Origin: a virus
IMG/VR virus record: IMGVR_UViG_3300005673_000003
Location: 32,001-96,000 of that record
Length of the DNA: 64,000 bases
Strand: one strand, 5' to 3'
Shown: positions 1-61,949 of the stretch, piece after piece
How positions within the stretch are numbered: the first letter of the stretch is position 1
How the letters are laid out: every line of letters starts with the position of its first letter
Translations under genes and position numbers: made by a program
The notes under the pieces: generated by a model
What the model was told of the DNA's origin: nothing
The model's input: only the letters and a program-made list of their open reading frames with translations
Database searches by the model: none

Positions 1-3000
1 TTAAGGCTACTCCCACCGAGCTTACAGCTTGGTTTGTAGAGGCCAGCATTCGAGTCTGACGCCCTGTGACCTCATGCTCTAATTTTGTCAAGGCATTAAG
101 AGCTTGATGAGTATCAGGTGGTTTTACCTCTATTTTTGAAACTGCTGGCGGGAGTAGCTTTGGAGCTTCGATTGGAGAGTTTGCTAATCGAATAATTGAT
201 TGATTATTGACTGGCTTAGCTAAAGCTGGCAGGGTTGGCTCTGAAGGTAGAGCCAGGTTAGGAGTAGGGCGAGGAGTGAGGGATGGGGAGTGGGGAGTAG
301 TAAGTAGCTGAGCAGGAGGCTGCACCGGAGCGGGAGTAGGAACGGGCTTGGCAGTAAGAACATCGGGAGCGTGAGGTACTTCTGTAGAAACTTTAGGAGC
401 TTCCAAGGTTTCTACAACGGTTGCTCTTTTGCCAAACCCAAACTTAGATTTCACGGTTTCCACTGCTTTGGCGGGAGCAGTGGAGATAGAAGAAACTAGA
501 TTTCTAAATTTCTGCTGTATCTGGTCGAGCAGGCTCATAAATCCTTTCCAGGCAGCTTCAGGAGCAGCGAGGACGGAGGCCATGAGAGCGGCGGCAGCGC
601 TGGCAGATGATTCAATGAAGTGGAATACTGCCTGTCCGGTCTTGCCGATGAATTGCAGCGATGCGGCTGGAGCTTTGAAGGTGATTGCGATCGCTCCAAA
701 GGTGCCTCTGATGATGCCTTCTAACCCCTCGAAAACACCTTGCAGTAACTGCGCTGCACCCCGGAAGACTCCGGTTAGGGCATTAGCTACTCCCTGCCCG
801 ATTCGTAAAATGCCGGAGAATGCGAGATGCGCGGCTTCCTGGATGGCACTGAAATCACCTCTGATAGCAGAACCGATGGAAGTAAAGATCTGCACTACTC
901 CCTTTGCAGTCTGCACCAGCCCTTGAATGATTTCATAAATCCCTCGGCCCAGTGATCCGATAATTTGGATCACTCCTCCCAGGACGGTACGCAAGCCCAG
1001 GAAGTTGGTAGCGATCGCCAATACTGTGAGCGCTATCCCTCCCAGGATTAAAAGCATCGGAGAAAAGGCACCCAATGACGCAATCCCGAATAACCCTACC
1101 CCGAACGATAAGCCGCTCATGGTCTTACTGATTCCGTCGAGCGCTCCTGAGAACTTAGCGCTGAATCCGGTTGCCAGCTCGAATACCCCTGATAACCGCT
1201 CCTTGAGCTTGTCGATTAGCGGCTGTACGCCTGTTTCTACCGCTTTGCCGATGGGAGTTAGTTCAGCTTGCTTAATCCCAGCATCCCAGGTTGCTTTGAC
1301 TGCCCCTACCAGTTGCGTGATAGCGGCTTGCACCAGTGGAGCATTAGCCTGAATGGATGCTGCCTGCTGAGCAATCACTTGGGTTACAACCGGGGTCACA
1401 GATTGTTCTGGAATGACTGGAGCAGGCAGTACCGGAGCAGGTAAGCCCGGAATTGTTTGCTGCAAGAATTGATTGATTTGCCCGGTTATCCCTGCCAGGT
1501 CAACGCTGGGGGCTGGGATAGGAGGCATCTCAATTTGGGGGAAGGTAAATTTGGGTGCTTCTGGTGTTCCAGTATTGATGACGGGATTACCGGGAGCAGG
1601 CACCGGAGCGGCTAATGCTGGCGCGAGAGCTGGGGTTTGCTGATTGAAAAATTGATTGATTTTATCGGTGACTCCAGAAAGATCTACTACTGGCACCATT
1701 GCCATGCCAGGGATCTTCCCAGTCAATGGCGCTTGCTCTACTACCTCTGCTAAGGGCTGAGCGACCGCAGTTTTGATCTCTCTTGCATCCTCTTTTTTGC
1801 GCAGGAAGGGAGGGATGATATTTTCAAAACTATCCTTAATGCTATTGGGCACAGCCATCAAAATATCAGTCAGCCAGCCTGCGAAAATCCTCCAAAGAGT
1901 CTTGATTGAATCGATTGCGGCATTAGCGATGCTTGGGAGGATCATGAACGGGAAAGCGATCGCCCTCCCAATCATCTGCCCAACGATTTCGCCTGATGCT
2001 GCCATTTTGGTGAAGGAGGCGATCGCCATTCCAACCGCTTCCCCAATGCCGCCAAATGCCGCTTGCATTGCTCCGGTGAATGGGGATAGAGCTACCGTTG
2101 CCACCTCGATCGCTGGCTTTAACCCCTGGTAAATTCCCTCTGCAATCCCTTTGACTAATCCCCAGACAAATCCCAAGGGAGCAACGATTGCGCTCAGTAC
2201 AGTACCCAGGACATTGATTCCAGGGGTCAGATACTCGATTGCAGCATACAGGCCCAGAATTGCTCCAATCGCTAGCGTGACCGGATTAAAGATCAGCGCC
2301 AGCGCTCCAGTAATAAATCCGGTCACGGTGGTTGCCAGCCCAGTAAAACCTCCCCCCAGAGCGACCAGGGCACCCATTAATCCCTGCTCCCCAATCGCAA
2401 CGGTAACAGTCTGGAAAAATCCAGTCAGGGGGATTAGCCCAGTTCGCATAACGGTGGAAGCGATACCAGCTTCAGCTATCGCTGCTTGCAGTCCAAAGAA
2501 AGCAGCGGCTGCAGTACCTAGAACGACTGCTAGCGAGGCGATTCCAGCGGTCAGAGTTGCAGCAATAGCGATTGAATTTTTGATTGGATCTGGGAGGCTT
2601 AGGAAAGTGCGGATCAGTTGCGAAATAGTATCTACAGTAGTTTTTATTGCAGGATTAAGAGCTTCCATGAATTGAATTTTTAAGCCCTCAATCGCAGAGG
2701 AAAGAGAGCGCATAGAGCCACCGATGCCGGATTCCATGATTCCCGCTTGACGCTTTGCCGCTCCTTCTCCCTGACTGGAAGCAAGAGCATCTCTGGTCAT
2801 GCTTCTAATATCTTTGGTATGGGAGGCCAGGTAAGTTGCAGCGCTCGAACCTTCTGTACCAAAGATAGATTTCATCTTCTGGATTTTCTCGGCTTCCGTA
2901 AGCCCTGCCATACTGCGGTTTAATTCACCGAGTACCACATCAACCGATTTCAGTTTACCTGTGTCATCTACTGTCTCTACTCCCAGCTCTGCCATCGCAC

Positions 3001-4156
3001 TCTTGGCGCGAGTAGTGGGAGCAGCAAGGGAGGTAAAAACTGTTCTTAATGCAGTACCTGCCATACTGCCTTTAATCCCTGCATTCGATAGCAGGGCAGT
3101 CATAGCAGCGGTTTGCTCCAAGGTAGCTCCGTAGCTCTGAGCAGAAACACCCGCATACTTCAGCGTTTCGCCCAAGTCTGCTACTTCAAGCTGACCCGCT
3201 CCGGCAGCGTAGGCTAACACATCCGCGACATGGTTTGCTTTCCCTGCCTGCAACTGGAATTGACCCAAAGTGGAGACGGTAATATCGGTGGCTTGAGCTA
3301 ACCCCAGATTTCCGGCAGCGGCCAGGTTTAGCGTGCCTCCGATCGCAGCCATTTGCTGATCCACCTTGTACCCAGCTTGGGCCAGTAGCACAAAACCGCT
3401 AGCAGCTTCAGAGGCAGAGAATCGAGTTTCCGCGCCCAATTGCTTTGCTTTGGTGCGGATCTTATCCATATTGTCAGCGGTTGCCTGGAGCGGATCCAGA
3501 ACCGCTTTCACTTGCAGCATCTGATCATCGAAGCTCTTGAAGACATTGAAGCTATCAATGCCAGCGCCAATCAGAGGAGCAGCAACTTGCATCCCGGTAT
3601 CAGCAATACTTTGAGCAACCCCTTGCCGACGCTGAGCAATTACGGCAGAGCGTTGATTCTCATGCAAATCAATCTTGTCGCCTGCTATCCGCTGCTCCCG
3701 CTGCAACTGCGCTCTAAATTCGCGCTCCGCTGCTGTATCCCCCTGGATTTGCAACTCCAGCCGCTTCAATTCAGCGATATACTCAGCAACCGATTGCTTA
3801 GCCTGATGGAATGCCTTAGCATCCCCAATGTCTCCAAAATCGATATTTCTAGATTCTGCTCGGAGCGCTCGGAATTCCCCCTTGAGTGGCATCAGAGCTT
3901 TCCCAACAGAAGAAAGCGCGGTTCCAGTATGAGCAATATTGTTCGCTGCCTGCTTAGCGGCAGTCCCTGCTCCCTGGAAGGCAGACTTTAGCCCAGAGCC
4001 TAGATCTGATGATTTGACAATGGTAGCAACCCGCTTTACAGCATCCTCGATATTTTTTAGGCCGCGCTCTGATTTATCCATATTGCTGAGAGCGGCTGCT
4101 CCCAACTCGAAATCGAAGACCGCTTGTAACCCATATCTATCTTGATTGTCAGCCAT
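1..4156 (-). CDS. Phage tail tape measure protein, TP901 family (3' end runs off the window)
   Basis: Absent from the ORF track because there is no stop in the window. ATG at 4156 (MADNQDRYGLQAVFDF...). The minus frame carries the TP901 core (ETRFSASEAASGFVLLAQAG...DLGETLKYAG...NAGIKGSMAGTALR), then Ala/Gly-rich helices and a Pro-rich tail. Confidence 0.93.
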   Translation of the reverse strand, partial: MADNQDRYGLQAVFDFELGAAALSNMDKSERGLKNIEDAVKRVATIVKSSDLGSGLKSAFQGAGTAAKQAANNIAHTGTALSSVGKALMPLKGEFRALRAESRNIDFGDIGDAKAFHQAKQSVAEYIAELKRLELQIQGDTAAEREFRAQLQREQRIAGDKIDLHENQRSAVIAQRRQGVAQSIADTGMQVAAPLIGAGIDSFNVFKSFDDQMLQVKAVLDPLQATADNMDKIRTKAKQLGAETRFSASEAASGFVLLAQAGYKVDQQMAAIGGTLNLAAAGNLGLAQATDITVSTLGQFQLQAGKANHVADVLAYAAGAGQLEVADLGETLKYAGVSAQSYGATLEQTAAMTALLSNAGIKGSMAGTALRTVFTSLAAPTTRAKSAMAELGVETVDDTGKLKSVDVVLGELNRSMAGLTEAEKIQKMKSIFGTEGSSAATYLASHTKDIRSMTRDALASSQGEGAAKRQAGIMESGIGGSMRSLSSAIEGLKIQFMEALNPAIKTTVDTISQLIRTFLSLPDPIKNSIAIAATLTAGIASLAVVLGTAAAAFFGLQAAIAEAGIASTVMRTGLIPLTGFFQTVTVAIGEQGLMGALVALGGGFTGLATTVTGFITGALALIFNPVTLAIGAILGLYAAIEYLTPGINVLGTVLSAIVAPLGFVWGLVKGIAEGIYQGLKPAIEVATVALSPFTGAMQAAFGGIGEAVGMAIASFTKMAASGEIVGQMIGRAIAFPFMILPSIANAAIDSIKTLWRIFAGWLTDILMAVPNSIKDSFENIIPPFLRKKEDAREIKTAVAQPLAEVVEQAPLTGKIPGMAMVPVVDLSGVTDKINQFFNQQTPALAPALAAPVPAPGNPVINTGTPEAPKFTFPQIEMPPIPAPSVDLAGITGQINQFLQQTIPGLPAPVLPAPVIPEQSVTPVVTQVIAQQAASIQANAPLVQAAITQLVGAVKATWDAGIKQAELTPIGKAVETGVQPLIDKLKERLSGVFELATGFSAKFSGALDGISKTMSGLSFGVGLFGIASLGAFSPMLLILGGIALTVLAIATNFLGLRTVLGGVIQIIGSLGRGIYEIIQGLVQTAKGVVQIFTSIGSAIRGDFSAIQEAAHLAFSGILRIGQGVANALTGVFRGAAQLLQGVFEGLEGIIRGTFGAIAITFKAPAASLQFIGKTGQAVFHFIESSASAAAALMASVLAAPEAAWKGFMSLLDQIQQKFRNLVSSISTAPAKAVETVKSKFGFGKRATVVETLEAPKVSTEVPHAPDVLTAKPVPTPAPVQPPAQLLTTPHSPSLTPRPTPNLALPSEPTLPALAKPVNNQSIIRLANSPIEAPKLLPPAVSKIEVKPPDTHQALNALTKLEHEVTGRQTRMLASTNQAVSSVGVAL

Positions 4157-4171
4157 ACTGCCCCAGCACGC

Positions 4172-4210
4172 AAAAAATAAGCACCGCAAAGAGGGTGCTC
4201 CTTGCAGTGC
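4172..4210 (-). terminator. Intrinsic terminator in the leader of the tape measure gene
   Basis: Minus strand GCACTGCAAGGAG-CACC-CTCTTTGCGGTGC (G:U pairs) followed by TTATTTTTT. A TATAAT lies upstream at 4261-4266. Confidence 0.6.
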
Positions 4211-4533: not shown

Positions 4534-4559
4534 TTTTAGCTCCTTCGATAATTGATTGA

Positions 4560-4799
4560 TTAAGCTGCTTCCAAAAGGCATTGCAGCGATCGGCCCAACT
4601 CATTCTCAGCTATCTCGAATACTTCGGCAAGCGTCCTCCCAGAACCATCCTCAGAAAGTGATTTAACCCTCTGCATGAAATCATTGAACGCGCTAACCCC
4701 TTCTGGCGGCAAGGAGTAAATGTAGTCGATAAACTCTCCTCCCAATGGGCCGCACTGCTTAATGATTTCTGCTCTTTCTAATGGTTTCATAGGTATCAC
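4560..4799 (-). CDS. Hypothetical protein
   Basis: ORF preceded by the genome-wide motif; protein-like composition. Confidence 0.55.
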   Translation of the reverse strand: MIPMKPLERAEIIKQCGPLGGEFIDYIYSLPPEGVSAFNDFMQRVKSLSEDGSGRTLAEVFEIAENELGRSLQCLLEAA

Positions 4800-4847
4800 C
4801 GATAGCGATAATTGATTGATTTCGAAAGGGGACGCGATCTGCTTTGA

Positions 4848-6925: not shown

Positions 6926-7402
6926 ATGGCACTTGACAATAAAGAAGGCGATACCACTGATTTTAATCGAATATTCCGAGAATCGTTCATCTCAGAGGAT
7001 TTACGGTTAAAGATACAAGAATTAGATCCCATTTTACGGGACGCATTCCTGGAGATGGAAAATCAATTGATTTTGTTCTGCGACCGTATCGAAACGCTTG
7101 AATGCGTGACAGATCAGCATCTCAAAGAGGAGCGGGAGCAAACCGAGATTGACATGGAGCGAGTGAGCAAGCGGATTGGCCGGAAAGCGTTAGCCTACAG
7201 CAAACAAGTAGCAGCATTAGCGCTCTCCTTATTTGGTGCAGCGATTTTATGGGGGAATCTTACCGAGGATCAAAAACAGAAGGTTGCAGGCAGCTTCTAC
7301 GAACAAGCCATTGGACAGATAGCCCCTGCCGCCTTCGCGACGATCGCGGGTGCTCTCCTGGTCAATAGCCGAAAAGCCGCAAAGGAGTCGAAGGATGAAT
7401 GA
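6926..7402 (+). CDS. Membrane protein (coiled coil plus 2 TM), possibly holin-like
   Basis: Two hydrophobic segments and a charged C-terminus. The holin call is inference only. Confidence 0.55.
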   Translation: MALDNKEGDTTDFNRIFRESFISEDLRLKIQELDPILRDAFLEMENQLILFCDRIETLECVTDQHLKEEREQTEIDMERVSKRIGRKALAYSKQVAALALSLFGAAILWGNLTEDQKQKVAGSFYEQAIGQIAPAAFATIAGALLVNSRKAAKESKDE

Positions 7403-8153
7403 GCTACTTCTCTGGCTCAGGGATTTAGTTAATTGGTTGCGTGAAGCAGTGGGGGGAGGAGTCTCTAGCACCTTTCACGTTGCAGAACATCTGAAGGGGT
7501 TAGATGGTGAATGCGAGGCTTGGCTAATTGGGACAGAGGAGTATGATTGCGGCATCCCCGGAATGACTGCTTGCTGGTATATTCGCCGGAATAGTGCATC
7601 CAAAGACTTCATTCTTCTGTGCTTCAATATCGCCCAAATTAAGGAGGCTTACAAACCCGCTGGAGATGGCTACCTGCCGGATGAATGGAGACGCAAATTC
7701 GAGGTTAATGCTCGACTACATCTCAAGCTACAAAAGAATGTGGGTGGCTCCCACTTATTTATGGTGTGCTCGGTGCAGCGTGAACCAGCTACCGTTAAAT
7801 TCACAGCAAATCAAGCGATCGAGTATAAATCGATTGATTGTGAATCCTGCTTTTCTGTAGATCTCCAGGGAGCATCGGTTGCCTGGATGGGCGCAAACGG
7901 CAGCGCTATCAAAATCGTTCGAGCAGTTGCAGAGCGAGTGCTGCAAATCCCAGCGATCAACTCCAGAGGATACCTCTGGGAGCAGGTAATTCTTTCGCTG
8001 TCAGATGCGGATGCTCGGCATACATGGTTGACCTGGCTCAATTACTTTTGCCGGGAGTACCGAGCAACCCGGATTGATGCGGAACACATCTTGCAGCCGC
8101 CGATCGGCAAGGCTTACTTCCAGCGTAAGCGTGCTAAGCAGCCCAAAGAATAA
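7395..8153 (+). CDS. Hypothetical protein
   Basis: Start MNELLLW overlaps the upstream stop and is preceded by an AGGAG RBS. Confidence 0.65.
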   Translation: MNELLLWLRDLVNWLREAVGGGVSSTFHVAEHLKGLDGECEAWLIGTEEYDCGIPGMTACWYIRRNSASKDFILLCFNIAQIKEAYKPAGDGYLPDEWRRKFEVNARLHLKLQKNVGGSHLFMVCSVQREPATVKFTANQAIEYKSIDCESCFSVDLQGASVAWMGANGSAIKIVRAVAERVLQIPAINSRGYLWEQVILSLSDADARHTWLTWLNYFCREYRATRIDAEHILQPPIGKAYFQRKRAKQPKE

Positions 8154-8594
8154 TCAATCAATTTCTAGCTCTAGCTTGGGTTCAACTCTTGCGAATCTGG
8201 GATTACCGTCGCGGTTAATGCCATACCAGGATTCTAAACTGCGTCGTCGATACGCTCCGGTCGGCATATCATCCGAGCGGTAAAGCACTTCCCAATCATC
8301 ATCAGAATCGCTCTCGCAATGGGAAACCCTGCCAACTACAATGTAGACTTTCTTCCTTCTATCATTGAGCCAACGGGAGCCGATTGCAGGGAATTCTAGA
8401 TTATCTTTCATGATTAAAAAAATAGGCTGCATGTTGCGTTGCAGCCGGAAACGATCTTGTTGCGTAGTCTTATAAGCCTGATTATATCGCAAACCAAAGG
8501 CTCCAGAAATAATCCCCCATTCTGGAGCCTTTGGAACCCGTGTTGACGAGGTATTGCCCAAATACAGTTTATGGAATGCTCTAAATATCGTCAA
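8154..8594 (-). CDS. DUF1653-like protein (true start probably near 8411)
   Basis: YIVVGRVSHCE...VLYRS...YRRRSLESW pattern. Confidence 0.5.
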   Translation of the reverse strand: MTIFRAFHKLYLGNTSSTRVPKAPEWGIISGAFGLRYNQAYKTTQQDRFRLQRNMQPIFLIMKDNLEFPAIGSRWLNDRRKKVYIVVGRVSHCESDSDDDWEVLYRSDDMPTGAYRRRSLESWYGINRDGNPRFARVEPKLELEID

Positions 8595-8854
8595 GAGCCT
8601 GGATTAGAGTTGTTTCCGTAAACACTGTCAAACCCAGCTTGCCTTGCCGCTGCACATCCCCCCAGATACTTATTGTAAGTGCCAGCAGTATTGGTGCCCC
8701 ACATCGCATCACGAACAGCTAGGGTTCTTAAATAATTGGTTTGGCGATATTGTTGAACGATTTCGCCTGCTAGTTCTCGCCTTGCTCGCTGAACTTGCTG
8801 TAGCTGATCTCCGTACTCTTCGATAATTATTCTTTCTAGGTCGTTTTCTAACAT
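8591..8854 (-). CDS. Hypothetical protein
   Basis: GGAG RBS and a helical-looking sequence; overlaps the tail of the HNH ORF. Confidence 0.55.
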   Translation of the reverse strand: MLENDLERIIIEEYGDQLQQVQRARRELAGEIVQQYRQTNYLRTLAVRDAMWGTNTAGTYNKYLGGCAAARQAGFDSVYGNNSNPGS

Positions 8855-9248
8855 CTCTTTCGCTCCCGGCAGAAATCAATCGATTATTCGATAGCTGCTT
8901 AAATCCTAGCGTAAGTTTGAATATCCATACATCCGTATTATGGTTATTCAATGCTGGATCTACTTTGCAGCGAACCCAAACATCCTTCCGATGGGAACGC
9001 TTATGACAACGTAGGCAGAGCGGGAAAACATCTCTCCCTGGCACTTCGCGGCCAGCGATCGCTCCCCACTCATCCTTGTAGCGAACATGATGAATTTCTG
9101 CGCTCTTACGCTTCAGACAATTGCAGCACTTATTCCCGGTCAACCGATGACTAAACGCTACGATATACCGATAGTTTTTAGCATATCGAGCTTCATAAGC
9201 TAGATCTAAAAGAGTCGATGATAGAGTTGCTTGCGCCACATTAATCAA
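8709..9248 (-). CDS. HNH endonuclease
   Basis: CCNC...EIHHVRY...PLCLRCHKRSH. Confidence 0.8.
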   Translation of the reverse strand: MINVAQATLSSTLLDLAYEARYAKNYRYIVAFSHRLTGNKCCNCLKRKSAEIHHVRYKDEWGAIAGREVPGRDVFPLCLRCHKRSHRKDVWVRCKVDPALNNHNTDVWIFKLTLGFKQLSNNRLISAGSERDVRKRPRKNNYRRVRRSATASSASKARTSRRNRSTISPNQLFKNPSCS

Positions 9249-9463
9249 TCAATTTCTATCGAAGGCTGGCGAGGAGTATTCTCCTGGTTGGGAGCTGGAA
9301 AGTATGAGAATACAATCATCAGCAATACAGTGCTAATCAAAGCGATCGTCACGACGACATCCCAGAGATTCGGCTTCGCTTTTTTCTCCTCGACGGCTTC
9401 CCACTTAACAATGCCGTCTTTGTTGATAGTTACCTTGAATTTTTGCTCTTTTTTCTCCGTCAT
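9245..9463 (-). CDS. Single-pass membrane protein
   Basis: TM segment VVVTIALISTVLLMIVFSYF. Confidence 0.6.
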   Translation of the reverse strand: MTEKKEQKFKVTINKDGIVKWEAVEEKKAKPNLWDVVVTIALISTVLLMIVFSYFPAPNQENTPRQPSIEID

Positions 9464-10111: not shown

Positions 10112-12025
10112 CTACGCCTTCAACATTGCTGGCAGATTCTTGAGCAGAAACTCCATATCCTTAACACTGACTTCCAGGCCGGAAAAACCCTGATAAGCCT
10201 TCTGAATTTCTTCAATTTTTGGAGTAGAACCAATATCATGCTGAGCTTGGAGCCAAAGACTTAACGCTTTGTAAGGATCTCCCTTAGCTCCCTTCAGAAA
10301 AGGCGCATAAGGGTCACTACCGCTAGGCTGATTAGACGCTTGAGGCTGGGGAGCATTAATCGATTGATTATTGCTTCGAGGGGGAGTTGGGGGAGCAGTA
10401 GGGGTGAACCAAAAATCCTCTATCTCTTGCTGGGTAAATTCCGGCGAGGTATTCGCAACGGGCTTAGGAGGGGGAGGGGGAGGGGGAGCCTGGGGAACTT
10501 GCTGAGCGGGAACCTCTACCGTCATTTGGCTTGCGGCAGGGGGAGGGGAATCTGGGGGAGCGCTGGCAGATTTCGCAGGGGTAGCAGGAGCGGCAGGGGT
10601 GCCCGGAATGATACTCCCCGTCCAATTGCTCCCAGGCACCCAGTTAAGCCGCAACTCTTCCAGGCCATTAATCGGAGGAGTAGGCAGGTAGCCCATATCG
10701 ACGGGCAGCGAGGTAGCAAATCCGGCTGGCCTACCAACCTGCCGATAGATAGATTGAGCATACTCAGCCGCGCTATCTGGGATAGTGCGAGGAGAGAGTT
10801 TCATTTGAATCTTATCCTGAGTCATTTCAGCACCCATGATGATATGGGCCTGACGTAAAGCCTTCCGCTTGATGCCCATCTCTTCGAGCGTTAGAGTGTG
10901 CATCATTAGCCAGAAATAGATTCCGAACTTTTTAGCTTCTGTTGCCAGTTTATTTAGAGTCTTATTGACCTCCTCCCGCTCGTCGTCATCCAGCTCCTCT
11001 AATTGGTTGGTGAATTCATCAACCCCAACAACAACAGGAGGGTAGTTAATATTATTCTTTTTGCGATACTCAAACAGCTCTCGAACACGCAAAAGAAACT
11101 GATTAAGATCCTTTGCATCGCCTTTGAAAATACCACTTTGAACTGCCTTGGGAACGCTCTGCATTAATGGGATTCCAAGCCAGTTTGATCGAAATTCAGG
11201 AGTCGAGCCATTGCCGTAATGGCTATCGAACACATACAGCACCAAATTAGGCTCAGCAGTAGCCCATTGATAGAGCGCATAATGCGCGGCCACTGTTTTC
11301 CCTTCCTGGGAGTTCGCCGCAAAAACGCAATGCTCTTTGGCGCACTTAGCATACAACTCGTAGGCATCCTTGGGCCGCGCTAGCTCAGCTTGGTAAGCGG
11401 CTACTTCATCAAAGGAGGTCAGGTAATTTTGCTCCGGCATCCCTCCACCTGGCGCGGCTTCTAAAGCGGGTTGCTGATAAGGCAGCTCAAGCAGTCCATG
11501 TAATTGGAATTTTTCAAGGTAGCGAGGCTGCTTATACTCCGGCAGAGTCGAGATATAGCCTGCTAGATTATCCTCTGCGCTAATCATATCCACTGCATCA
11601 TTGAAAGCTTGGTTGTGAGCCAGCTTCTTGGCAAGCGAGATTTGATCTGCTCTCCGTAACTTGGAATGCGTCTCTTCTTGTGTTTGCTGGAGGTAGGAGA
11701 CATAGGAAAATGCGCCAGCGCTAATCGTGCTGGTAGCCAGCAGAAGGAAATTGGCAGCTTTGGGAATATGAAAAATAGGGGTCAGGATTAGTGATGCTCC
11801 GTAAGTGACGATCGCTAATCCTGCCAGCTTCCACATCGCAGAGCGCTGATCAGCAATCGATTGCCGGATAGCGTCAGTTTTAGGATCTCGAATGTAGCCC
11901 GTCTCATCGTAGACCTGATTAGCTCCTGGTATTGGTAGATAAGGATTGCCCTCAAACTGAGTGGAGCGGTAGTAATGGGGATTTTGAATTTCCTGATAGT
12001 AAGGATCGTATCCGTAAGTCATCAC
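10112..12025 (-). CDS. Membrane-anchored FtsK/HerA-superfamily ATPase with Pro-rich C-terminal linker
   Basis: Two N-terminal TMs; Walker A ANSQEGKT; YVFD strand; Walker B VVVGVDE; LATEAKKFGI. Confidence 0.75.
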   Translation of the reverse strand: MMTYGYDPYYQEIQNPHYYRSTQFEGNPYLPIPGANQVYDETGYIRDPKTDAIRQSIADQRSAMWKLAGLAIVTYGASLILTPIFHIPKAANFLLLATSTISAGAFSYVSYLQQTQEETHSKLRRADQISLAKKLAHNQAFNDAVDMISAEDNLAGYISTLPEYKQPRYLEKFQLHGLLELPYQQPALEAAPGGGMPEQNYLTSFDEVAAYQAELARPKDAYELYAKCAKEHCVFAANSQEGKTVAAHYALYQWATAEPNLVLYVFDSHYGNGSTPEFRSNWLGIPLMQSVPKAVQSGIFKGDAKDLNQFLLRVRELFEYRKKNNINYPPVVVGVDEFTNQLEELDDDEREEVNKTLNKLATEAKKFGIYFWLMMHTLTLEEMGIKRKALRQAHIIMGAEMTQDKIQMKLSPRTIPDSAAEYAQSIYRQVGRPAGFATSLPVDMGYLPTPPINGLEELRLNWVPGSNWTGSIIPGTPAAPATPAKSASAPPDSPPPAASQMTVEVPAQQVPQAPPPPPPPKPVANTSPEFTQQEIEDFWFTPTAPPTPPRSNNQSINAPQPQASNQPSGSDPYAPFLKGAKGDPYKALSLWLQAQHDIGSTPKIEEIQKAYQGFSGLEVSVKDMEFLLKNLPAMLKA

Positions 12026-12837: not shown

Positions 12838-12903
12838 AATTTAATGCTCCTTGATTGCTTGACCGATTAGAAATTGATTGATTATTGCTGGTACAAGAAG
12901 GGG

Positions 12904-14143: not shown

Positions 14144-14232
14144 ATACCGAGAGGGCGATCGCGATAATTACCAAAGCTGCAAGAATTTTGTAGAGAGCTG
14201 CCAACCAAGTTGGCTGACCAGGAAATAATCGA

Positions 14233-14835
14233 TCAATTAGTAGGTGCTCCGCCAAAGATTTGGGCAGATAGCTCTTTGCCCCGAGAACGAAAGTGGGTCA
14301 GCCTTGGCTGACTACCTCCCGCTTTATTCATAAATTTGTCTATGGTCAAGTCAGCAGTATTGAGAGCAATGCCTATCAATAAGTCCGAGTAGCCTTCTGC
14401 AAACTCATGACTTCCAGCTAAAAGCTCCTCTTTAATAACCGTGAGTTCTTGATCGACAATTCGAGCAATGTTCCTCATTCCATCCTGATTGCCGCCGCTA
14501 TCTTGCGCGTCTTGAGGTTGATCCCCCAAAGAAACTTCATCCGCTTTAACTAAGCCGCCAGCTTGAGCATCCTCAGCTTGAGGATTGCCAGCATCATCGC
14601 TTTTGCCGCTCTTCTTAGAATTAGATTTTGCTAGTTTGCTTTTGTTAGTCTGCTCCCGCTGATCATTGATTGATTGACCAAGAAGCAGAACATCCTCGTC
14701 ACCATTGATAACCCATCCTGCATCCAAGCATTTCTGGACTAGCTTTTCGTCGGCTTCTACGCCGACATCTGCAAGCTTGGCAATAATGTCTAAAGTGTTC
14801 ATAACCATTCCTTGAGTGCTACTGAGGCGATGCAC
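14233..14835 (-). CDS. Hypothetical protein, first gene of the ATPase operon
   Basis: ORF with likely start near 14808/14802. Confidence 0.7.
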   Translation of the reverse strand: MHRLSSTQGMVMNTLDIIAKLADVGVEADEKLVQKCLDAGWVINGDEDVLLLGQSINDQREQTNKSKLAKSNSKKSGKSDDAGNPQAEDAQAGGLVKADEVSLGDQPQDAQDSGGNQDGMRNIARIVDQELTVIKEELLAGSHEFAEGYSDLLIGIALNTADLTIDKFMNKAGGSQPRLTHFRSRGKELSAQIFGGAPTN

Positions 14836-14911
14836 CCGATTGGGGCACTGAACACACTCTAAACGGTTAAGATAAACCTGTCAACATGACAGGATAAAAA
14901 TATCTCGAAAA

Positions 14912-15220
14912 TCAATCGATTTTCTTGGTTCGCTTCCTGGCTCTCTTCGTCAAATTACCTGTCCGCTCAGCTTCAATCCTCCTGGCGCGGGCTATCTCGT
15001 AGATCTCCCGTTGCTGGGGAGGCATGATGTTATCCTGAGCATCCCAAGCCAAAAAGAGTGCATGAAGGTTATCCAGGTGATTTAGAAGCGACTGGGGAGG
15101 GCTTACTGGGTTTTCCTTCCTGAACCAATGCTGCACCCCATCAACGGTGTAGCCGCCAATCAAGTCAGCCAGCTCAGGGTACGTGAGCCGCCAATGCTCC
15201 TTGAATTCTTTCGGGTGCAT
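14912..15220 (-). CDS. HTH (XRE-like) DNA-binding protein
   Basis: LTYPELADLIGGYTVDGVQHWF; ATG immediately after the GNAT stop. Confidence 0.7.
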   Translation of the reverse strand: MHPKEFKEHWRLTYPELADLIGGYTVDGVQHWFRKENPVSPPQSLLNHLDNLHALFLAWDAQDNIMPPQQREIYEIARARRIEAERTGNLTKRARKRTKKID

Positions 15221-15222
15221 TA

Positions 15223-15936
15223 TTAGCTCAAGCTCCTGAACCGCTTTTGCAGAGCTTGAGGGGAGCAATCCTTAGCTCCATAGAGATCCAAGCCATCGGG
15301 CAGCTTAGAGCCTGGGGTAACTACCTTTAACCCAAATAGCTCCAATGCCTTGCGGCCCATTTCGGTCTGAGCTTGACCGTACATATAGCAGGGATAGGCA
15401 ATGTGCCCCGAATTCCTCCAAGCGCCGATCGCGCATCGCATCAAAGGCCGCGCCAGTCCAGCATTTCTCCACTTCTCGACAATCACAATGCCGCTAAAAT
15501 ACCAATGCTTCGCCCCATATTCGAGGCAATCCCATTCGCTAAACGGGAAGAGATCTTCCTCCCGGATTTCTCCAGCAATAAATTGAGCAGCCTGCTTCTC
15601 GCTCAAGGGATAAATGCCAAGAGATCCAACTATCCGGCCCCCAATTAGCAGGCAGCGGCCAGCGTTAGGGTATTGAGTCCACCATCGCTCAAAGCTCTCA
15701 AACTCAATTGAGTGATCCTGGTAAGCTTCTTTGTCTATCTCCCAAAGTTCCCGGAGCATTGATAGATCTTGTACTGCCGATACTTGGATCAGTGAAGGAG
15801 CGGATACGGTTTTCACTAGCTCTTCGCAGGCTGCATCCCTTGAGGATAGTACACTTGAACTCATTAGACTGACCGGGATATGAATGATTACCTTCATCAC
15901 ACTCGCTTTCGTCTTATCTGTCAATAATTGGGTCAA
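15223..15936 (-). CDS. GNAT-family acetyltransferase
   Basis: YFSGIVIVEKWRNAGLARPLM (motif A) and GRIVGSLGIYP. Confidence 0.7.
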   Translation of the reverse strand: MTQLLTDKTKASVMKVIIHIPVSLMSSSVLSSRDAACEELVKTVSAPSLIQVSAVQDLSMLRELWEIDKEAYQDHSIEFESFERWWTQYPNAGRCLLIGGRIVGSLGIYPLSEKQAAQFIAGEIREEDLFPFSEWDCLEYGAKHWYFSGIVIVEKWRNAGLARPLMRCAIGAWRNSGHIAYPCYMYGQAQTEMGRKALELFGLKVVTPGSKLPDGLDLYGAKDCSPQALQKRFRSLS

Positions 15937-16594: not shown

Positions 16595-16653
16595 CCCTAG
16601 CTCAGCACTTAATCGACTATCAATAATCAATCAATTTCACATCGGAGTCAGAT

Positions 16654-46535: not shown

Positions 46536-46623
46536 AACTCCACGTCCTAGAAATCTAAAAATCTAAAAATCTGAAAATAAAGGGGGAAAGCGTTATCCCC
46601 CTCTTAATCAATCAATTCGCAAC

Positions 46624-48003: not shown

Positions 48004-48042
48004 GATTGCCTTCCGCTTACCGATAATTGATTGATTAATCCA

Positions 48043-48090
48043 ATAGTAGCGGCCCACCCCAAAAATGTCAACAACTATCAATCAATTATT
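48043..48090 (-). promoter_or_regulatory. Conserved sigma70 promoter, copy 4
   Basis: AATTGATTGATAGTTG-TTGACA-17-TACTAT. Confidence 0.78.
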
Positions 48091-48442: not shown

Positions 48443-48655
48443 TTTCCCTCTTAATCAATCAATTATTCATCGAGCCATGCTTTGCATCGCCAAGCAGCGC
48501 TAATGATTGCGTGCCCAAGCTCCGGGCTGGGGGCAGAGTAGACTCTAAAGATTCGCTCCAGCATTGCAAAAACCTGTGAATTTGAGATGGGGAGCGCTGG
48601 CTGGTTAGCGTCCAGGTAGGAGCTAAGGACGATCGTTGAAGCGTAGAAATCAATT

Positions 48656-49590: not shown

Positions 49591-49651
49591 TATTCCTCCA
49601 GCTAATTAATTGATTGATTTTTAGAAATCTAAATTTCCAGATTTCTAATTT

Positions 49652-51064: not shown

Positions 51065-51109
51065 AAACTAAACAACTCCCAAATTGATTGATTATTGCGC
51101 TGAAGGTAG

Positions 51110-51519: not shown

Positions 51520-51565
51520 AATATAGTCAGCTCAAAATAAAATGTCAACATCTATCAATCTTTTT
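51520..51565 (-). promoter_or_regulatory. Conserved sigma70 promoter, copy 5
   Basis: AAAAAGATTGATAGATG-TTGACA-17-TATATT. Confidence 0.8.
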
Positions 51566-51664
51566 CTTATGGCTTATACTTACAGAAGCGCTATCCCAGT
51601 CTCACTGGTGGTTTGCGCGATCTACCTGATAATCGATCAATTAATCGCCCAATTAATCATCGCT

Positions 51665-52390
51665 ATGCAGAAATCAACTCTAAAAGCTCCTGAGACTCGC
51701 GCTAACGTATTGCATTCCAGTGCAAGCAATGAACACTACACTCCTACTTTGATTGCCCAGAAAAGCAGGAATATCTTGGGAGGGATTGAATTGGATCCGT
51801 GTAGTTGCAAGCTGGCAAACGAAATAATCCGAGCGGAGCAGTACTACTCGTTAGAAGAGGGAATAGACGGGCTGCAGCAATCCTGGAAAAGCCGCTCCCT
51901 ACTGCTGAATCCCAGAGGAGGGCAGATCAGGGATCGGGAGTTTATCAAGCGCTATGGCACATCATCATCGATCGCGGCCTGGGGTAATGAGCTGAAGCGG
52001 CGATGGGAGGTTGGAGAAGTTCAGCAAGCCATCTTCATTGGATTCCAACTTAGTGTCCTGCGGCTATGCCCTGGTTTTCTGTCATTGCCATTTTGCGTCC
52101 CCAGAGAGCGGCTTTGCTTCTGGACAACACCGCACGCTCTGCGACAAGCAGAAGCAGCGAAGCGGAAGCCGGATTTACAATTTGTGGAGCGATGGATCCT
52201 TGAGTGCATCGATAAAGGCGAGTGTATCGACTCTGAGCATGGGTTTCTGGTGCCATCCCATTCGCCCAGTCACGATAATGTGATCATCTTTTTCCCGCCT
52301 AAAAAAGATGGAAGGGAGGAAGCCCTTGCAAACTTCGCGGCAGAGTTTGCGGATGTTGGAGAGATCGCCAATCTGAGATTCTGGAGATAG
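51665..52390 (+). CDS. Phage Dam-like N6-adenine methyltransferase, variant motif IV
   Basis: SNEHYTP...IELDPCS...DGLQQSW...LNPRG (the canonical motif is NPPY). Confidence 0.7.
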   Translation: MQKSTLKAPETRANVLHSSASNEHYTPTLIAQKSRNILGGIELDPCSCKLANEIIRAEQYYSLEEGIDGLQQSWKSRSLLLNPRGGQIRDREFIKRYGTSSSIAAWGNELKRRWEVGEVQQAIFIGFQLSVLRLCPGFLSLPFCVPRERLCFWTTPHALRQAEAAKRKPDLQFVERWILECIDKGECIDSEHGFLVPSHSPSHDNVIIFFPPKKDGREEALANFAAEFADVGEIANLRFWR

Positions 52391-53120: not shown

Positions 53121-53564
53121 ATGAGTAACTTACCTGAAAATCAAGTTCATCTAGAAGCAGGGCATTCGGATTCTAAATTGGCACAATCCGAATCATCGCA
53201 AGCAGAGGAACCTGAGCCGATTACAAAACCCTCACTAGAAGATTTCATGCTCCTCGCGTTAACAGATCTAGAGGGTCTGACCGGAGTTGATTCCTCCGAT
53301 TGGAGTCGCTGGTTCAACGGTGCTTTACTATCGGAGCGCATTTTAATCAAAGCCGCAGAACCCCTTGGATTAACCGCTGGGCAACTTCTAGACTTCATCT
53401 CTCGCAGGCGTGAAGCTACGCTCGGCCTGCGAAAAGCTGGGAGGAAATTCACCCCAAAAGAAATGCAACTGGTAATCAATCGGCAATCAAAAAAGGGCCA
53501 GGGCGGAACAGGAAATTCAGGAGGCAAGTCTAAAGCTTCCAGCCTGGAATCCGTTTGCGCCTAA
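53121..53564 (+). CDS. HTH regulator (Cro-like candidate)
   Basis: LTDLEGLTGVDSSDWSRWFNG. Confidence 0.65.
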   Translation: MSNLPENQVHLEAGHSDSKLAQSESSQAEEPEPITKPSLEDFMLLALTDLEGLTGVDSSDWSRWFNGALLSERILIKAAEPLGLTAGQLLDFISRRREATLGLRKAGRKFTPKEMQLVINRQSKKGQGGTGNSGGKSKASSLESVCA

Positions 53565-54266
53565 ATAAAAATGGGAGGGGTGAACCCCTCCCAGCAATAA
53601 TCAATCAATTAATCGTCGGAAAGGCAGAGCGGAATCAACTTCTACGTAACGAGAAGAAGTTATCAAAGCCCGTCTTTTAGACTCTTAACTTCCCTCACTA
53701 TATACAAGATCCAGAGAGGCTTGCAACTCGCTCTACGGGCCGCTTGTAGCAAGATCCAATGTCATGATGACAGGTTACGCTGTATAAAATATTGCAAGCT
53801 GTACGGATGCGGCTTGCAAGTAAAGGGCTAGGGGTGGATCAAAAAATAAAAAGAAAGATCCCTTTGCTAAAAATTTGGATCAGGCTACAATCTTGATCGG
53901 TAAAGCCTGGGTGAGCGGCTATCTGGCCTAAAAATTAATCAATTTTTGACCCCCAAATAGCAAATCACCCCCAGAGTTAGCCGCTCTGGAGGTTTTATTA
54001 GTCAAATTTATTTTTCCTAACCATTCAAACAAAAGCACTCAAGGAGAACTTCGATTGAATTTCAGTCGTATGATAACCATCCCTCTCAGGAGGTTTCAGC
54101 TCGTATGATAACACTACGCGCTAGAGATTGCCATAGGGCAGGCAATATTTTTTCTAATGGGAGCAGCCGTTGGTACCAGGGGTATCAGCGGTTTTGTCGT
54201 GCGTTTGCGGCTTTCAATAATCAATCAATAATCAATCAATAATCATCGGAACCGGAGTAGGTTTAT

Positions 54267-56044: not shown

Positions 56045-56095
56045 TTCCCGCAACGATTTCAAGCAATAAATCAATCAATTATTCGGAGAAGTAAC

Positions 56096-57490: not shown

Positions 57491-57666
57491 AGTCTGCTTG
57501 CGAGATTCTTGCATGATTGGGTATTGCTTTACACTTACTGAATCAGCATCCAATCAGCTTGAATTCAGGGTCATCCTAAAGACTGATTTTCCCAGGGTGC
57601 TTTTATGCTGTGCCCTTTGCAACACGGCAATAATCGATCAATTATTAACTATTGAATTGGCGAATT

Positions 57667-57888: not shown

Positions 57889-58518
57889 ATGCTGTACACT
57901 GCTTCTTGGAAAAAGGGAAAAGATTACATTCACGGCCAAGCTTATTCGATCAGCCTAAAGGCTCCTCGAAATCTCGATTTTCCGATTGAGCACTTAGATT
58001 TTTTTAAGCCCACTCAAGGACTGCTGGATTTCTGGTATCAATCAGATAAATCCGAGCAGGCATGGCAGGAATACGAATCCCGATATTGGAAGCTAATCTT
58101 AGCTCCAGAGCGGAAAAATCCAATCATGTCCTGGCTCAATAGTTTGCCGCCGCAAAAAGATTGTACGCTCTGCTGTTTTGAGGTTAGTAATCGCTACTGT
58201 CACCGACGCTTAGTAGAGCTAATCATCAGAAAATATCGGCCAGAGCTATGGGTGGGTGACAGTATCCGCGCTACTCTGGAGATTGGCGATAGGGTAGAGC
58301 ATAAACTGTTGCCTCAGAAAGGGATTGGAACCGTTCTTGACCGGATGGCAACATTAGCTTATGTAATCTGGGATGATCTACCTCTTGGGGCTGTTCGCTC
58401 GGTTGTTCATCCAGTTAAAAGTGGGAATTACTACAACCAGATAGGCAATCCGTTACCCTACCCAGGCAACCTTTTGCGGCGAATCGAGGAAAGCAATAAT
58501 CAATCGATTAAAGGATAG
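57889..58518 (+). CDS. DUF488-family protein
   Basis: MLYTAS...SIS..AP...TLCCFE....CHRRLV. Confidence 0.75.
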   Translation: MLYTASWKKGKDYIHGQAYSISLKAPRNLDFPIEHLDFFKPTQGLLDFWYQSDKSEQAWQEYESRYWKLILAPERKNPIMSWLNSLPPQKDCTLCCFEVSNRYCHRRLVELIIRKYRPELWVGDSIRATLEIGDRVEHKLLPQKGIGTVLDRMATLAYVIWDDLPLGAVRSVVHPVKSGNYYNQIGNPLPYPGNLLRRIEESNNQSIKG

Positions 58519-59400: not shown

Positions 59401-59421
59401 ATAATTGATTGATTTTTGAGA

Positions 59422-60328: not shown

Positions 60329-60927
60329 CTGGAATTCATCCAGCTACAGAACTGCCCAACCATTTCCCTGTCTAGCATTCCAATCGCCGCATCATTTCTT
60401 AGCATTAAAAGTGCAGAAGCGGGAGTAAGCGGCTGAGCGTATGGACGCTCCCCTACCATTGCGTCAAACATATCAGCCAAGATCAAACACCAATGTTTTG
60501 ATTGCCATTCTAGAGCTTTGCAAAATTCAGGAGGGTAGCCATGCTCATTGCCCTCGTTTTCTATACCTAAAGGCAGGCGGCAATGATGGGAGCGCACCAG
60601 CTCAACAACTTCTGGCTGATTATAGAAATGCAGAAGTAGCAGGTAGCCTTCATCTGGATGAGAGCGAATCTCAAGTAAATCTCGCTCCGTCAAGAAGTCT
60701 TTGATCTTCCAATCCAGATCCCGGTTCATGCAAAGCAACTGGCCGAAATCGTGCAGAATCCCAGCTTCAAACAATGCTCTTTGATCTTCGACTGATAAGC
60801 CGATATGCTTAGCGAAAGCTGCCGCAATCTTGGAAACCCTGCAACAATGAAACCATTTCCACGGACTCCAGCGAAGGAGCTGATATTCTGCAATATCTGA
60901 TACTTCCCGAAAAGAAAGAAGTGTCAT
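60325..60927 (-). CDS. Stand-alone HD-GYP phosphodiesterase
   Basis: HCCRV, LHDFG, HPDEG, HH, GYP, ADMFDAM..ERPY. Confidence 0.88.
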   Translation of the reverse strand: MTLLSFREVSDIAEYQLLRWSPWKWFHCCRVSKIAAAFAKHIGLSVEDQRALFEAGILHDFGQLLCMNRDLDWKIKDFLTERDLLEIRSHPDEGYLLLLHFYNQPEVVELVRSHHCRLPLGIENEGNEHGYPPEFCKALEWQSKHWCLILADMFDAMVGERPYAQPLTPASALLMLRNDAAIGMLDREMVGQFCSWMNSR

Positions 60928-61949
60928 GGTAGGTCGCTCCGGGTAATAGTTGTTTGCATCCCGTCTGATGAAATATTTACCAATAATCGCTTACTCCCTG
61001 CAATCTGCTGAGATTCGTCAGCTATCAGAGATACGCCTGCTTTCATTCCCATGAGCGTGTAAATATCATCCAATTGCATCCCAAGCTGAGAGGCGATGAT
61101 CGCGCTTACGACATTGGCTGGATTCTGCGGAGCTATTACCACTCCTCCCCCAGTAAAAGAAAATTGACTCGAAAATTGATTGATTTCTGATTGTATTATT
61201 CCAATCTGAATGAGAGTAGTATCGACGCTTGAATCGATCAGGCTAATCTGAGTGCTAATCGTTGCTACCTGAGCGATAACGGTAGTGATCATAGAATGAG
61301 CCGATTGAATCTCTGATAAGGCATCGTTTAGGGTTGTTCGATCATTACTATCGAAGCTATTGCTGGCTTGATCTCCTATGTCTGCCATCAATTTGCCAGC
61401 AGTGCCAGCCCCGGTAAACCCAGATGTAGAGCTACTCCAAACAGAATCGGCGATCGCTTGATTTCCGGCTGTCGATAAAGATCTGCCAGAATATCCCCAG
61501 ACTTGCTCCGGCGTTACTCCCCCTCCTCCTCCTTGATTGACAAGGTACGAGGTTTGAATATCTGAAAATTGCGGCTCGATGATGACTGGATTTGATAGCC
61601 CATTTAACTCGTAAATCGGCAAGCCAGCATCTTCCCCGAAGAGATTTGCTCCGCTGAACCGGATGACGTGATGATAATCGGCAGGGACTATCCTCCAATT
61701 CATCCCATTTTGATTCTGCAAGTAAATATCTGCTGTTGCATAGACCTGATTCCCCAAGAGATCGACAAATCGCCTTCCTCCTCCAGACTGCCGGAAAGGG
61801 AATCGATATTTCAGATTATCGGATTCCCCCCACCAAATTTCTCCAGCACTCCACAAATCTCTCAATACATCATAAGTGGCGATTATCGGACTCCCCGGCA
61901 ACGCCTGCTCTGTAATTGTTCGAGTGGGGCCATCAAAAATAAACGGCAT
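60924..61949 (-). CDS. Probable virion structural (tail/fibre-associated) protein
   Basis: FDGPTRTI N-terminus, VW repeats, coiled coil. Confidence 0.55.
   Translation of the reverse strand: MPFIFDGPTRTITEQALPGSPIIATYDVLRDLWSAGEIWWGESDNLKYRFPFRQSGGGRRFVDLLGNQVYATADIYLQNQNGMNWRIVPADYHHVIRFSGANLFGEDAGLPIYELNGLSNPVIIEPQFSDIQTSYLVNQGGGGGVTPEQVWGYSGRSLSTAGNQAIADSVWSSSTSGFTGAGTAGKLMADIGDQASNSFDSNDRTTLNDALSEIQSAHSMITTVIAQVATISTQISLIDSSVDTTLIQIGIIQSEINQFSSQFSFTGGGVVIAPQNPANVVSAIIASQLGMQLDDIYTLMGMKAGVSLIADESQQIAGSKRLLVNISSDGMQTTITRSDLP

Follow-up and report, generated by a model that had tools for sequence, protein, structure and literature searches.

What reads a 12-letter word that stands about a hundred times in one phage genome and mostly points the way the genes are transcribed? 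The word was analysed in a 64,000-nt stretch (the window), bases 32001-96000 of the 148,728-bp virus record IMGVR_UViG_3300005673_000003, which has direct terminal repeats according to IMG/VR and is 100% complete according to CheckV. The virus is a complete 149-kb phage of filamentous cyanobacteria. Its copies of the word are tentatively read here as docking sites that form a polar array and serve a phage-encoded, sequence-specific DNA-binding regulator, comparable to operators and stoperators.

The word and its placement

The pattern AATYRATYRATT has 59 exact matches in the window, the first at 194-205 and the last at 61174-61185, against 0.18 on average, and never more than 1, in 100 dinucleotide shuffles; the about 55 matches counted by eye in the first-pass annotation were indeed far above chance. 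The whole 148.7-kb record, to which the counts below refer unless the window is named, holds 121 matches, evenly distributed, and the word is the most frequent 12-mer of the genome. It had been called palindromic, which is correct for the degenerate (IUPAC) pattern only: 46 of the 59 window matches are a directional word or its complement, and just two are true palindromes (7061, 31922). The oriented consensus is AATCAATC[A/G]ATT, with weak A/T (W) flanks; further out than about 4 nt on each side the sequence is uninformative. This directional word occurs 103 times (1 per 1.4 kb, or about 690 per Mb), where 0.02 copies are expected. Seventy-one copies are exact AATCAATCAATT, 32 carry only a G at position 9 (A9G), and 27 additional copies deviate at one other position. 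Positions 2-3, 6-7 and 10-11 (AT, AT, AT; core xATxxATxxATx) are nearly invariant, and the sense strand has no G unless position 9 is G. Copies are spaced fairly evenly (coefficient of variation of the gaps 0.80, vs 0.99 for random placement). Their flanks are mutually unrelated (26% identity, like random sequence), so that the selected unit is the bare 12-mer; a larger repeat or a miniature inverted-repeat transposable element is thereby ruled out. The sole pair of copies with homologous flanks (genome 122248 and 123389) lies in the DpdA region, outside the window. A literature search for the 12-mers returned unrelated matches only, and an IMG/VR pattern scan for the word followed by a Shine-Dalgarno sequence (SD) and ATG gave, among the matches listed, single chance-level ones only.

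The directional copies point with the local genes in 85 cases and against them in 12; the figures are 50 and 7 between co-directional genes, and 35 and 5 inside open reading frames (ORFs). The orientation flips at each gene island, for example at the small plus-strand island at 16-20 kb, and therefore tracks transcription and not replication or packaging. The sense word is free of stop codons in all frames and the reverse has TGA in two, which explains part of the bias inside ORFs and none of the bias between genes. Intergenic DNA makes up 11% of the record yet holds 63 of the 121 matches. Within 24 nt, 44 of the 103 directional copies are followed by an SD (GGAG or similar) and by the start codon of an ORF that is 50 aa or longer, vs 2.5% of random positions. 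The gap from word to SD is mostly 1-8 nt and the start codon lies 11-23 nt past the word, whereas the upstream stop codon may overlap the word or precede it by up to 59 nt; it is the downstream start, then, that anchors the word. Ten copies that had been reported just 5' of ribosome-binding sites are all in sense orientation, and nine of them stand 2-8 nt before GGAG or AAGG and a start, the copy at 39671 having no recognised SD. The word is not part of a terminator or stem-loop unit, as the 45 nt upstream fold no better than control windows, although 5-6 copies do follow a strong hairpin. The idea that reversed copies, such as those at 46606 and 48453, mark lysogeny-expressed genes was dropped, since the 'AAGAGGG' at 46606 is the stem of a terminator-like hairpin and not an SD.

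Sense copies inside ORFs number 35, against 1.6 (maximum 6) in synonymous-codon shuffles, the codon-preserving control that the first-pass annotation had proposed; the excess is about 20-fold. About 25 of these copies are truly internal, and of the 38 places at which the peptide would allow the word, 34 have it. The 12.8-kb tape-measure gene alone has 9 directional copies, which read as NQSI(I) or, in a second reading frame, as INQF or INRL. NQSI readings had been listed for the tape measure, the 637-aa ORF, ParA, ORF 29361-29870 and the DUF488 gene, and three minus-strand ORFs (ending at 8154, 9245 and 14912) had been seen to end in I-D-stop within the word; all of these are confirmed. After the internal copy in the DpdA gene (439-aa ORF) comes a homologue of the neighbouring gene's true leader and ATG, so some ORF copies can be taken as relics of cassettes fused in frame. 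The remaining copies without a start lie at operon ends, past hairpins and at convergent junctions, and 12 are antisense.

Two families of sigma-70-type promoters precede copies of the word, which begins 6-16 nt past the -10 box. In the first (about 10 promoters), GATTGATAGAT abuts TTGACA and is followed by a 17-18-nt spacer and a TAnnnT box. These promoters are near-identical and share an A-tract; members of the family are the three best promoter-like sites in the region scanned, and further ones lie at genome 105208, 107968, 110808 and 134112. The second family (about 5 sites) reads GACATAAT-N5-TGTAAGC without a clear -35 box. About 15 host-type promoters thus put the word at about +1 to +22 of the transcript, so that it is transcribed and is not itself the promoter; the majority of copies are away from promoters. 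GATTGATAGAT resembles the word in inverted orientation at 9 of 12 positions, the AT-AT-AT core included, and with this reversed cousin before the -35 box and a forward copy about 60 bp apart the promoters are bracketed. The second family's sites are at window 19126-19145 and 22965-22971 (minus strand) and at genome 4674, 119558 (minus strand) and 119700; GTAAGC also recurs between SD and start codon in several genes. At 39713-39750 two promoters overlap as a perfect inverted repeat.

The copies and associated elements of the window are as follows (strand after the coordinates where one is assigned; distances are from the word).
194-205, minus: in the giant tape-measure ORF, sense
1467-1478, minus: in the tape-measure ORF, sense
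1650-1661, minus: in the tape-measure ORF, sense
4550-4561, minus: leader copy of an 84-aa ORF; 4 nt to SD, 16 nt to start
4810-4821, minus: inter-ORF copy; 19 nt to ATG, strong SD absent
7061-7072: inter-ORF, true palindromic variant
7828-7839, minus: antisense, within ORF 7350-8153 (plus)
8152-8163, plus: convergent junction; the copy supplies the stop codons of both genes, and the minus-strand gene ends I-D-stop
8874-8885, plus: antisense, within ORF 8709-9248 (minus)
9243-9254, plus: overlaps the I-D-stop terminus of ORF 9245-9463 (minus, 72 aa)
10358-10369, minus: sense, in the 637-aa ORF, reads NQSI
12872-12883, minus: leader copy of a 167-aa ORF; 19 nt to SD
14227-14238: variant AATCGATCAATT, end of ORF 14233-14835 (minus)
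14910-14921, plus: antisense; gives the I-D-stop end to ORF 14912-15268 (minus)
16625-16636, plus: leader copy of a 191-aa ORF; 7 nt to SD
17284-17295, plus: leader copy of a 110-aa ORF; 3 nt to SD
17751-17762: inter-ORF variant
17799-17810, plus: inter-ORF copy, start not near
18087-18098, plus: leader copy of a 104-aa ORF; 2 nt to SD
18423-18434, plus: leader copy of a 213-aa ORF; overlaps the preceding stop codon; 14 nt to SD
19126-19145, plus: promoter-like GACATAAT-N5-TGTAAGC; the copy at 19149 falls in the first ~20 nt of the transcript
19149-19160, plus: leader copy downstream of the 19126-19145 unit; 3 nt to SD
19412-19423: inter-ORF variant
21220-21231, plus: antisense, between two minus-strand genes
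22124-22135, minus: leader copy of a 231-aa ORF; 2 nt to SD
23040-23051, plus: antisense, in the 5-nt gap of two minus-strand genes
27306-27321, minus: overlapping copies (27306, 27310), 21 nt before the 1009-aa tail-fibre gene; position kept in both relatives
27798-27809, plus: antisense, within ORF 27345-27869 (minus)
27997-28008, plus: divergent intergenic region
29598-29609, minus: sense, in ORF 29361-29870, reads NQSI
30502-30517, minus: overlapping pair upstream of ORF 29880-30434
31338-31349, minus: sense, in ORF 30519-31628
31588-31599, minus: sense, in ORF 30519-31628 close to its 5' end
31922-31933: true palindromic variant, edge of ORF 31631-31927; final copy ahead of the TnpB/IsrB stretch
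34154-34164, minus: GATTGATAGAT abutting a TTGACA -35 box, promoter family member; 11-of-12 copy in the leader
36405-36416, minus: first copy past the insertions; then AAGG and a GTG start
37106-37117: variant in the 1070-aa ORF
37582-37593, minus: sense, in the 1070-aa ORF
39671-39682, minus: leader copy of the 1070-aa ORF; 16 nt past the -10 box (promoter 39728-39699); 17 nt to ATG
39699-39740, minus: promoter with GATTGATAGAT, TTGACA, 18 nt, TACAAT; 11/12 to consensus
40595-40606, minus: immediately past a strong hairpin; start not near
42334-42345, minus: leader copy of a 555-aa VWA ORF, downstream of promoter 42398-42358; 3 nt to SD
42358-42398, minus: promoter of the GATTGATAGAT-TTGACA family
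43764-43775, minus: leader copy of the MoxR ATPase, downstream of TATATT-N3-TGTAAGC; 3 nt to SD
44564-44575, minus: sense, in ParA, reads NQSI
45067-45078, minus: leader copy of ParA; 3 nt to SD
45678-45689: variant in a 285-aa ORF
46606-46617, plus: antisense, between the stop of a 485-aa gene and its terminator-like hairpin
48025-48036, minus: 6 nt past the -10 box (promoter 48071-48043), ~+1 of the transcript; 12 nt to SD; 459-aa ORF
48043-48083, minus: promoter with GATTGATAGTT, TTGACA, 17 nt, TACTAT
48453-48464, plus: antisense, between two minus-strand genes
49604-49619, minus: overlapping pair; 8 nt to SD; 161-aa ORF
51082-51093, minus: leader copy of a 127-aa ORF; 2 nt to SD
51520-51560, minus: promoter with GATTGATAGAT, TTGACA, 17 nt, TATATT; an 11-of-12 copy begins ~6 nt downstream
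51631-51642: variant in ORF 51542-52390 (plus)
53599-53610, plus: 6 nt past the GC-rich hairpin that closes the 147-aa XRE-like gene 53121-53564
53933-53944: variant in the 670-nt non-coding stretch
54219-54241, plus: tandem pair of 11-of-12 copies upstream of GGAG and ATG at 54267
56069-56080, plus: leader copy of DnaB; 4 nt to SD
57632-57643: variant in a small ORF
58498-58509, plus: final codons of the DUF488 gene (NQSI) and leader of the DUF5131 gene; 1 nt to SD
59403-59414, minus: convergent junction
61174-61185, minus: sense, in ORF 60924-61949

The phage lineage and its hosts

The word is a private feature of the phage lineage. Genomes of the likely host family, 57 in all, supply the comparison with host chromosomes also proposed at the outset; AATCAATYRATT numbers 1-34 sites in their 3-9 Mb, or roughly 1-3 per Mb, and the phage is about 400-fold denser. 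Five genomes picked through a TnpB match have 1-8 copies each. The two richest of the 57 genomes are the two that contain phage relatives. In the Leptolyngbyaceae metagenome-assembled genome (MAG) G006, seven short contigs, 34 kb in sum, bear about 19 of the 34 sites and encode proteins 35-63% identical to the phage tape-measure, tail-fibre, portal, DnaB and other proteins. The other relative lies on a 520-kb contig of G055, which matches a Timaviella obliquedivisa contig reached through the portal protein; 13 of 15 sites fall at 307-362 kb, within a stretch of phage homologues at about 287-362 kb. This stretch is flanked by housekeeping genes (PBP1, RsmB, ScpA, UbiA-type) at 200-215 and 440-455 kb, and the Timaviella relative is therefore integrated in the chromosome, which makes the lineage temperate at least in part. 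The earlier proposal of a backbone-specific signal under selection stands on the host density, on the confinement to phage-derived DNA in the two relatives and on the codon shuffles.

Two relatives carry sister variants of the word (AATCAATTRATT), partly at the same gene starts. The sister words AATCAATTAATT and AATCAATTGATT are often flanked by G and C, or followed by a T-run that abuts ATG. Upstream of the orthologues of the 1009-aa tail-fibre gene, the word stands at -33, -31 and -31 in three phages, with one mismatch in the third; at other genes it has been gained or lost among the three. More distant portal relatives (39-43% identical) have no copies. Word density is a practical marker for fragments of this phage lineage in cyanobacterial MAGs.

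HIP1 (GCGATCGC), the hallmark word of cyanobacteria, occurs separately from the 12-letter word in 68 copies in the record, whose G+C content is 48.6%. In the integrated relative (G055:C28:287000-362000) HIP1 reaches about 2 per kb, equal to its flanks, vs 0.46 per kb in the free phage, which looks like long residence in the host. Two genes are insertions, both at 32-36 kb: a TnpB (OrfB_IS605 and TNB) and an RRXRR/IsrB-like gene. Filamentous cyanobacteria, among them Leptolyngbya JSC-1, Thermostichus and Elainellales, have the closest TnpB relatives (88-94% identical). The insertions had been described as free of the word, and there are zero exact copies in 31933-36405; one 11-of-12 copy stands behind a phage-type promoter (~34075-34090). 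TnpB (32004-33209) and the RRXRR IsrB/IscB-like gene (34419-35582) are split by a native phage segment with its own promoter and two small genes, and look like two separate insertions, not one.

Genes annotated in the phage include portal, DnaG primase, DnaB helicase, a 4281-aa tape-measure protein, tail proteins, GTP cyclohydrolase I with an intein, QueC, MoxR and VWA proteins. A ParA-type ATPase adjoins a 118-aa ribbon-helix-helix (RHH) protein (window 43958-45052, minus strand, the RHH gene at 43958-44314), and no integrase or resolvase was found in the complete record, which suggests upkeep as a plasmid prophage. Neither a sigma-70 factor nor NusG was found in the phage, nor a T7-type RNA polymerase in a search that lacked a positive control; on this basis the phage depends on host RNA polymerase. 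The tape-measure ORF, with Pro/Ala-rich linkers, spans window 2-4189 (genome 23344-36189; minus strand); a relative in a JGI metagenome has one of 4798 aa, and such lengths imply extremely long tails. GTP cyclohydrolase I is interrupted by a LAGLIDADG-bearing intein (genome 124824-126491 and nearby) and QueC is encoded elsewhere in the genome; together with DpdA they suggest 7-deazaguanine DNA modification. Upstream of replication genes (477-aa ORF, DnaB) lies a 670-nt non-coding stretch (window 53565-54266) with a GC-rich hairpin at its start and two tandem near-copies of the word at its end; it could be an origin or control region. The first and last 150 bases of the genome (1-150, 148579-148728) are identical; either a terminal repeat or, in a circular or permuted genome, an overlap left by assembly may account for this. 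Phage and plasmid records searched by Megablast with 24 kb yielded no match, and IMG/VR searches with DnaB and portal found no relatives.

What may read the word

All 12 positions are held at about 100 sites, beyond any general A/U-rich effect, and a sequence-specific reader is therefore needed. If this reader is a phage-encoded DNA-binding regulator, which is the preferred reading although its probability stays somewhat below one half, copies at +1 to +22 of host-type promoters would be operators, and those along operons, before the ribosome sites of cistrons and in long genes would be one-way roadblocks to host RNA polymerase. One protein could then keep the whole 149-kb genome silent, or switch it, during the prophage state, which in this phage would probably be a ParA-partitioned plasmid. 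Word and reader would co-evolve to set immunity specificity, hence the sister words in relatives.

The model for such an array is the stoperator system of Cluster A phages. Cluster A stoperators are 13-bp asymmetric sites, 24 in L5 and 34 in Bxb1, placed in promoters and short intergenic spaces and one-way with respect to transcription; a monomeric repressor blocks both initiation and elongation there, and the consensus varies among heteroimmune relatives (PMC9283540; PMC3029335; PMC6550527). Their readers are L5 gp71, Bxb1 gp69 and the TipsytheTRex repressor (PMC9283540; PMC6550527; PMC3029335). The phage word is likewise asymmetric (12 vs 13 bp), present in dozens of copies genome-wide and mostly one-way with respect to transcription. 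In placement the agreement is partial: half of its copies are intergenic and about 15 promoters carry one, but about 25 copies are truly within ORFs, unlike in L5. Related phages again have similar, non-identical consensus words, and some Cluster A members use partition (parABS) instead of an integrase, as the ParA-RHH module without integrase would here (PMC6550527). The first-pass annotation had considered the word far denser than typical repressor operators, but the value found here matches the 1 per 1.5-2.2 kb of stoperators in Bxb1 and L5 (PMC3029335; PMC9283540). The differences are an unrelated host phylum and phage lineage, the lack of a gp71 homologue, 3-4 times more copies per genome, ORF-internal copies (about one quarter) kept against synonymous drift, and an AT-rich word with a period-4 core. 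The array thus appears to work most like a stoperator or operator array, but is not a member of the Cluster A family in view of the missing gp71 homologue and its ORF sites.

Several observations weigh against a DNA-binding regulator of this kind. In L5 the exact sites are almost without exception intergenic, but here ORFs contain about one quarter of the copies. The 45 nt downstream of the word are less structured than average (-5.7 vs -7.7 kcal/mol), and this, with a sense strand free of G and of stop codons, would suit a role at the RNA level. No reader protein was named by searches of Pfam (~140 proteins), PHROGs (10) or PDB sequences (3 candidates, which have no relatives of solved structure). 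Among 111 small proteins only one, an RHH protein, passes Pfam at E <0.001, and an XRE-like helix-turn-helix match is weak (E 0.006, score below the family cut-off). Searches of the phage for an L5 gp71 homologue by phmmer and tblastn gave, at the sequence level, a best E of 0.19, and the complete record has no PF00589 match that would indicate a tyrosine-recombinase fold. An extremely weak gp71 match, the 186-aa ORF at 45975-46535, was rejected as the repressor: it has conserved Cys/His and looks like an enzyme. A protein as reader, double-stranded DNA as its target, a block of transcription by its binding with the resulting silence of the genome, and lysogeny of this particular phage are all inferences, and the last of these also counts on the negative side.

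The word could instead be an mRNA-leader element, AAUCAAUC[A/G]AUU, placed 5' of the SD like the start-associated sequences (SAS) of Cluster K or the targets of T4 RegA/RegB, and recognised either by an RNA-binding factor of phage or host, with translation raised or repressed as a result, or by an endoribonuclease cutting polycistronic RNA into translatable units. This is possible, though rather doubtful. The coupling to SD and start, the free distance to the upstream stop, the strict sense-strand orientation, the G-less word that cannot fold and the open RNA downstream all agree with it, as do the relatives in which word and T-run abut ATG without any SD and the DpdA copy, which would make some ORF copies fused-cassette relics. 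Its 3' end and flank (R-A-U-U-W) also fit the cyanobacterial RNase E rule of adenine at -4/-3 and uridine at +2 (PMC8682795). However, the ORF-internal, antisense, operon-end and post-hairpin copies serve no start and yet are exact and strongly selected. The spacing is non-discriminating: in an L5 control, 11 of 17 intergenic or edge stoperators lie at most 18 nt from, or overlap, the next start, with a variable distance to the upstream stop, so start anchoring does not separate DNA from RNA readings. No RNA-binding domain was found in the phage, the word has only 6-7 nt of complementarity to the first 900 nt of 16S rRNA (from the G006 MAG, which carries a related phage), and general A/U-rich enhancers would not require a 12-of-12 match. 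A DNA-binding regulator is favoured over an RNA reading by the start-less copies, by the +1 to +22 placement at about 15 promoters with the inverted cousin before -35, and by the temperate relatives together with the ParA-RHH module without integrase, which parallels the parABS members of Cluster A. Less probable again is a new phage factor that would read the word either in the RNA or in the transcription bubble's non-template strand, and so tag phage messages over their full length, both at the ribosome sites of the cistrons and at intervals within very long genes; possible purposes are protection from RNases, coupling of polymerase and ribosome in a Rho-less host, or discrimination of phage from host RNA. 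If true, such a tag would be a genome-wide RNA-level 'self' mark without a described counterpart.

The other explanations fare worse. A linker at module boundaries, at which genes or domains are swapped between related phages by short-homology or site-specific recombination, would account for the many 'SD plus ORF' units that have the word at their 5' edge, for its presence in the Pro/Ala-rich linkers of the tape measure, and for the cassette of the DpdA region fused in frame with its leader retained. It is improbable all the same: a 12-base stretch is little for homologous recombination, the searches turned up no recombinase, a single pair of copies shares its flank and no mosaic joint falls at the word within the genome, differing variants in relatives would block exchange, and the placement at promoters is left unexplained. 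Many AT-rich, co-oriented copies stand directly before genes, as late promoter elements for a phage-modified or phage-encoded polymerase would, in the manner of the T4 late TATAAATA box or T7-type promoters; but with the 1-5 nt between word and SD in most leaders the transcript would start within the SD or past it, consensus sigma-70 promoters stand upstream of the word, and nine directional copies in one ORF would yield useless transcripts. Neither a sigma factor nor, in the search without a positive control, a single-subunit polymerase was detected, and this idea is very unlikely. Equally hard to credit is a HIP1-like signature or self-mark, arising from methylase or repair bias or the 7-deazaguanine system, or a strand-polar cue for translocase, packaging or recombination nuclease (KOPS- or Chi-like). 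The high, rather even density, the copies in coding as well as non-coding DNA, variable positions that are pyrimidine-purine steps, and the GTP cyclohydrolase I and QueC genes speak for it; the absence of a palindrome, the crowding of half the copies into the intergenic DNA, the fixed position relative to the SD, the orientation flips at small gene islands and the separate HIP1 do not. Known phage DpdA target motifs are 2-3 nt long, which counts against the 7-deazaguanine version. Among the readings offered by the first-pass annotation, a site for an element-encoded global repressor is thus the best explanation here; for a modification site no support was found, and the flips at every small gene island argue against the translocase or packaging cue.

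Other repeated words and significance

Other iterated words resemble this one in part. HIP1, of which the word had been considered a phage-private counterpart, is also a highly iterated short word in coding and non-coding DNA of cyanobacteria-associated genomes. It is, however, a true 8-bp palindrome and host-wide, and we know of no polarity or gene-start preference for it, whereas the present word is directional, linked to gene starts and rare in the likely-host-family genomes. Chi and KOPS differ in that the orientation here flips per gene island and the word is rare in host genomes. SAS of Cluster K are 13-bp asymmetric elements 3-7 bp before start codons, with a function still unknown (PMC3203893; PMC12699233). 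Like the word, they have one orientation, lie a few nt before starts, are rare or absent in the host and occur subcluster-wide before unrelated genes. SAS hold the SD core, whereas here a separate GGAG/AAGG follows 1-8 nt past the word, and they number 7-19 per genome, in the non-structural arm only, with 6/125 inside ORFs (PMC3203893; PMC12699233), while the word is genome-wide, before and inside tail, portal-region and tape-measure genes. The SPBRE of the large temperate phage SPbeta, about 10 copies in promoter regions only, is bound by the master repressor MrpR/YopR, which keeps lysogeny (PMC10516654). It is similarly a phage-private repeated word, and promoter regions hold copies of both; MrpR has a tyrosine-recombinase fold, undetected here, and most of the present copies are off promoters.

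Only for actinobacteriophages (stoperators) and SPbeta have genome-wide one-way arrays of regulatory words been elucidated. The present array seems to be the first of its kind from a lineage of cyanobacterial phages, none having been found described, and it is an extreme case, with about 100 exact copies, written into coding sequence in several frames, and sister words in an integrated relative. If the stoperator-like reading is true, the 12-mer would be a compact, orthogonal and orientation-dependent control element for cyanobacterial synthetic biology, and whole-genome polar silencing would have arisen independently in a distant phage-host system with a non-homologous reader.

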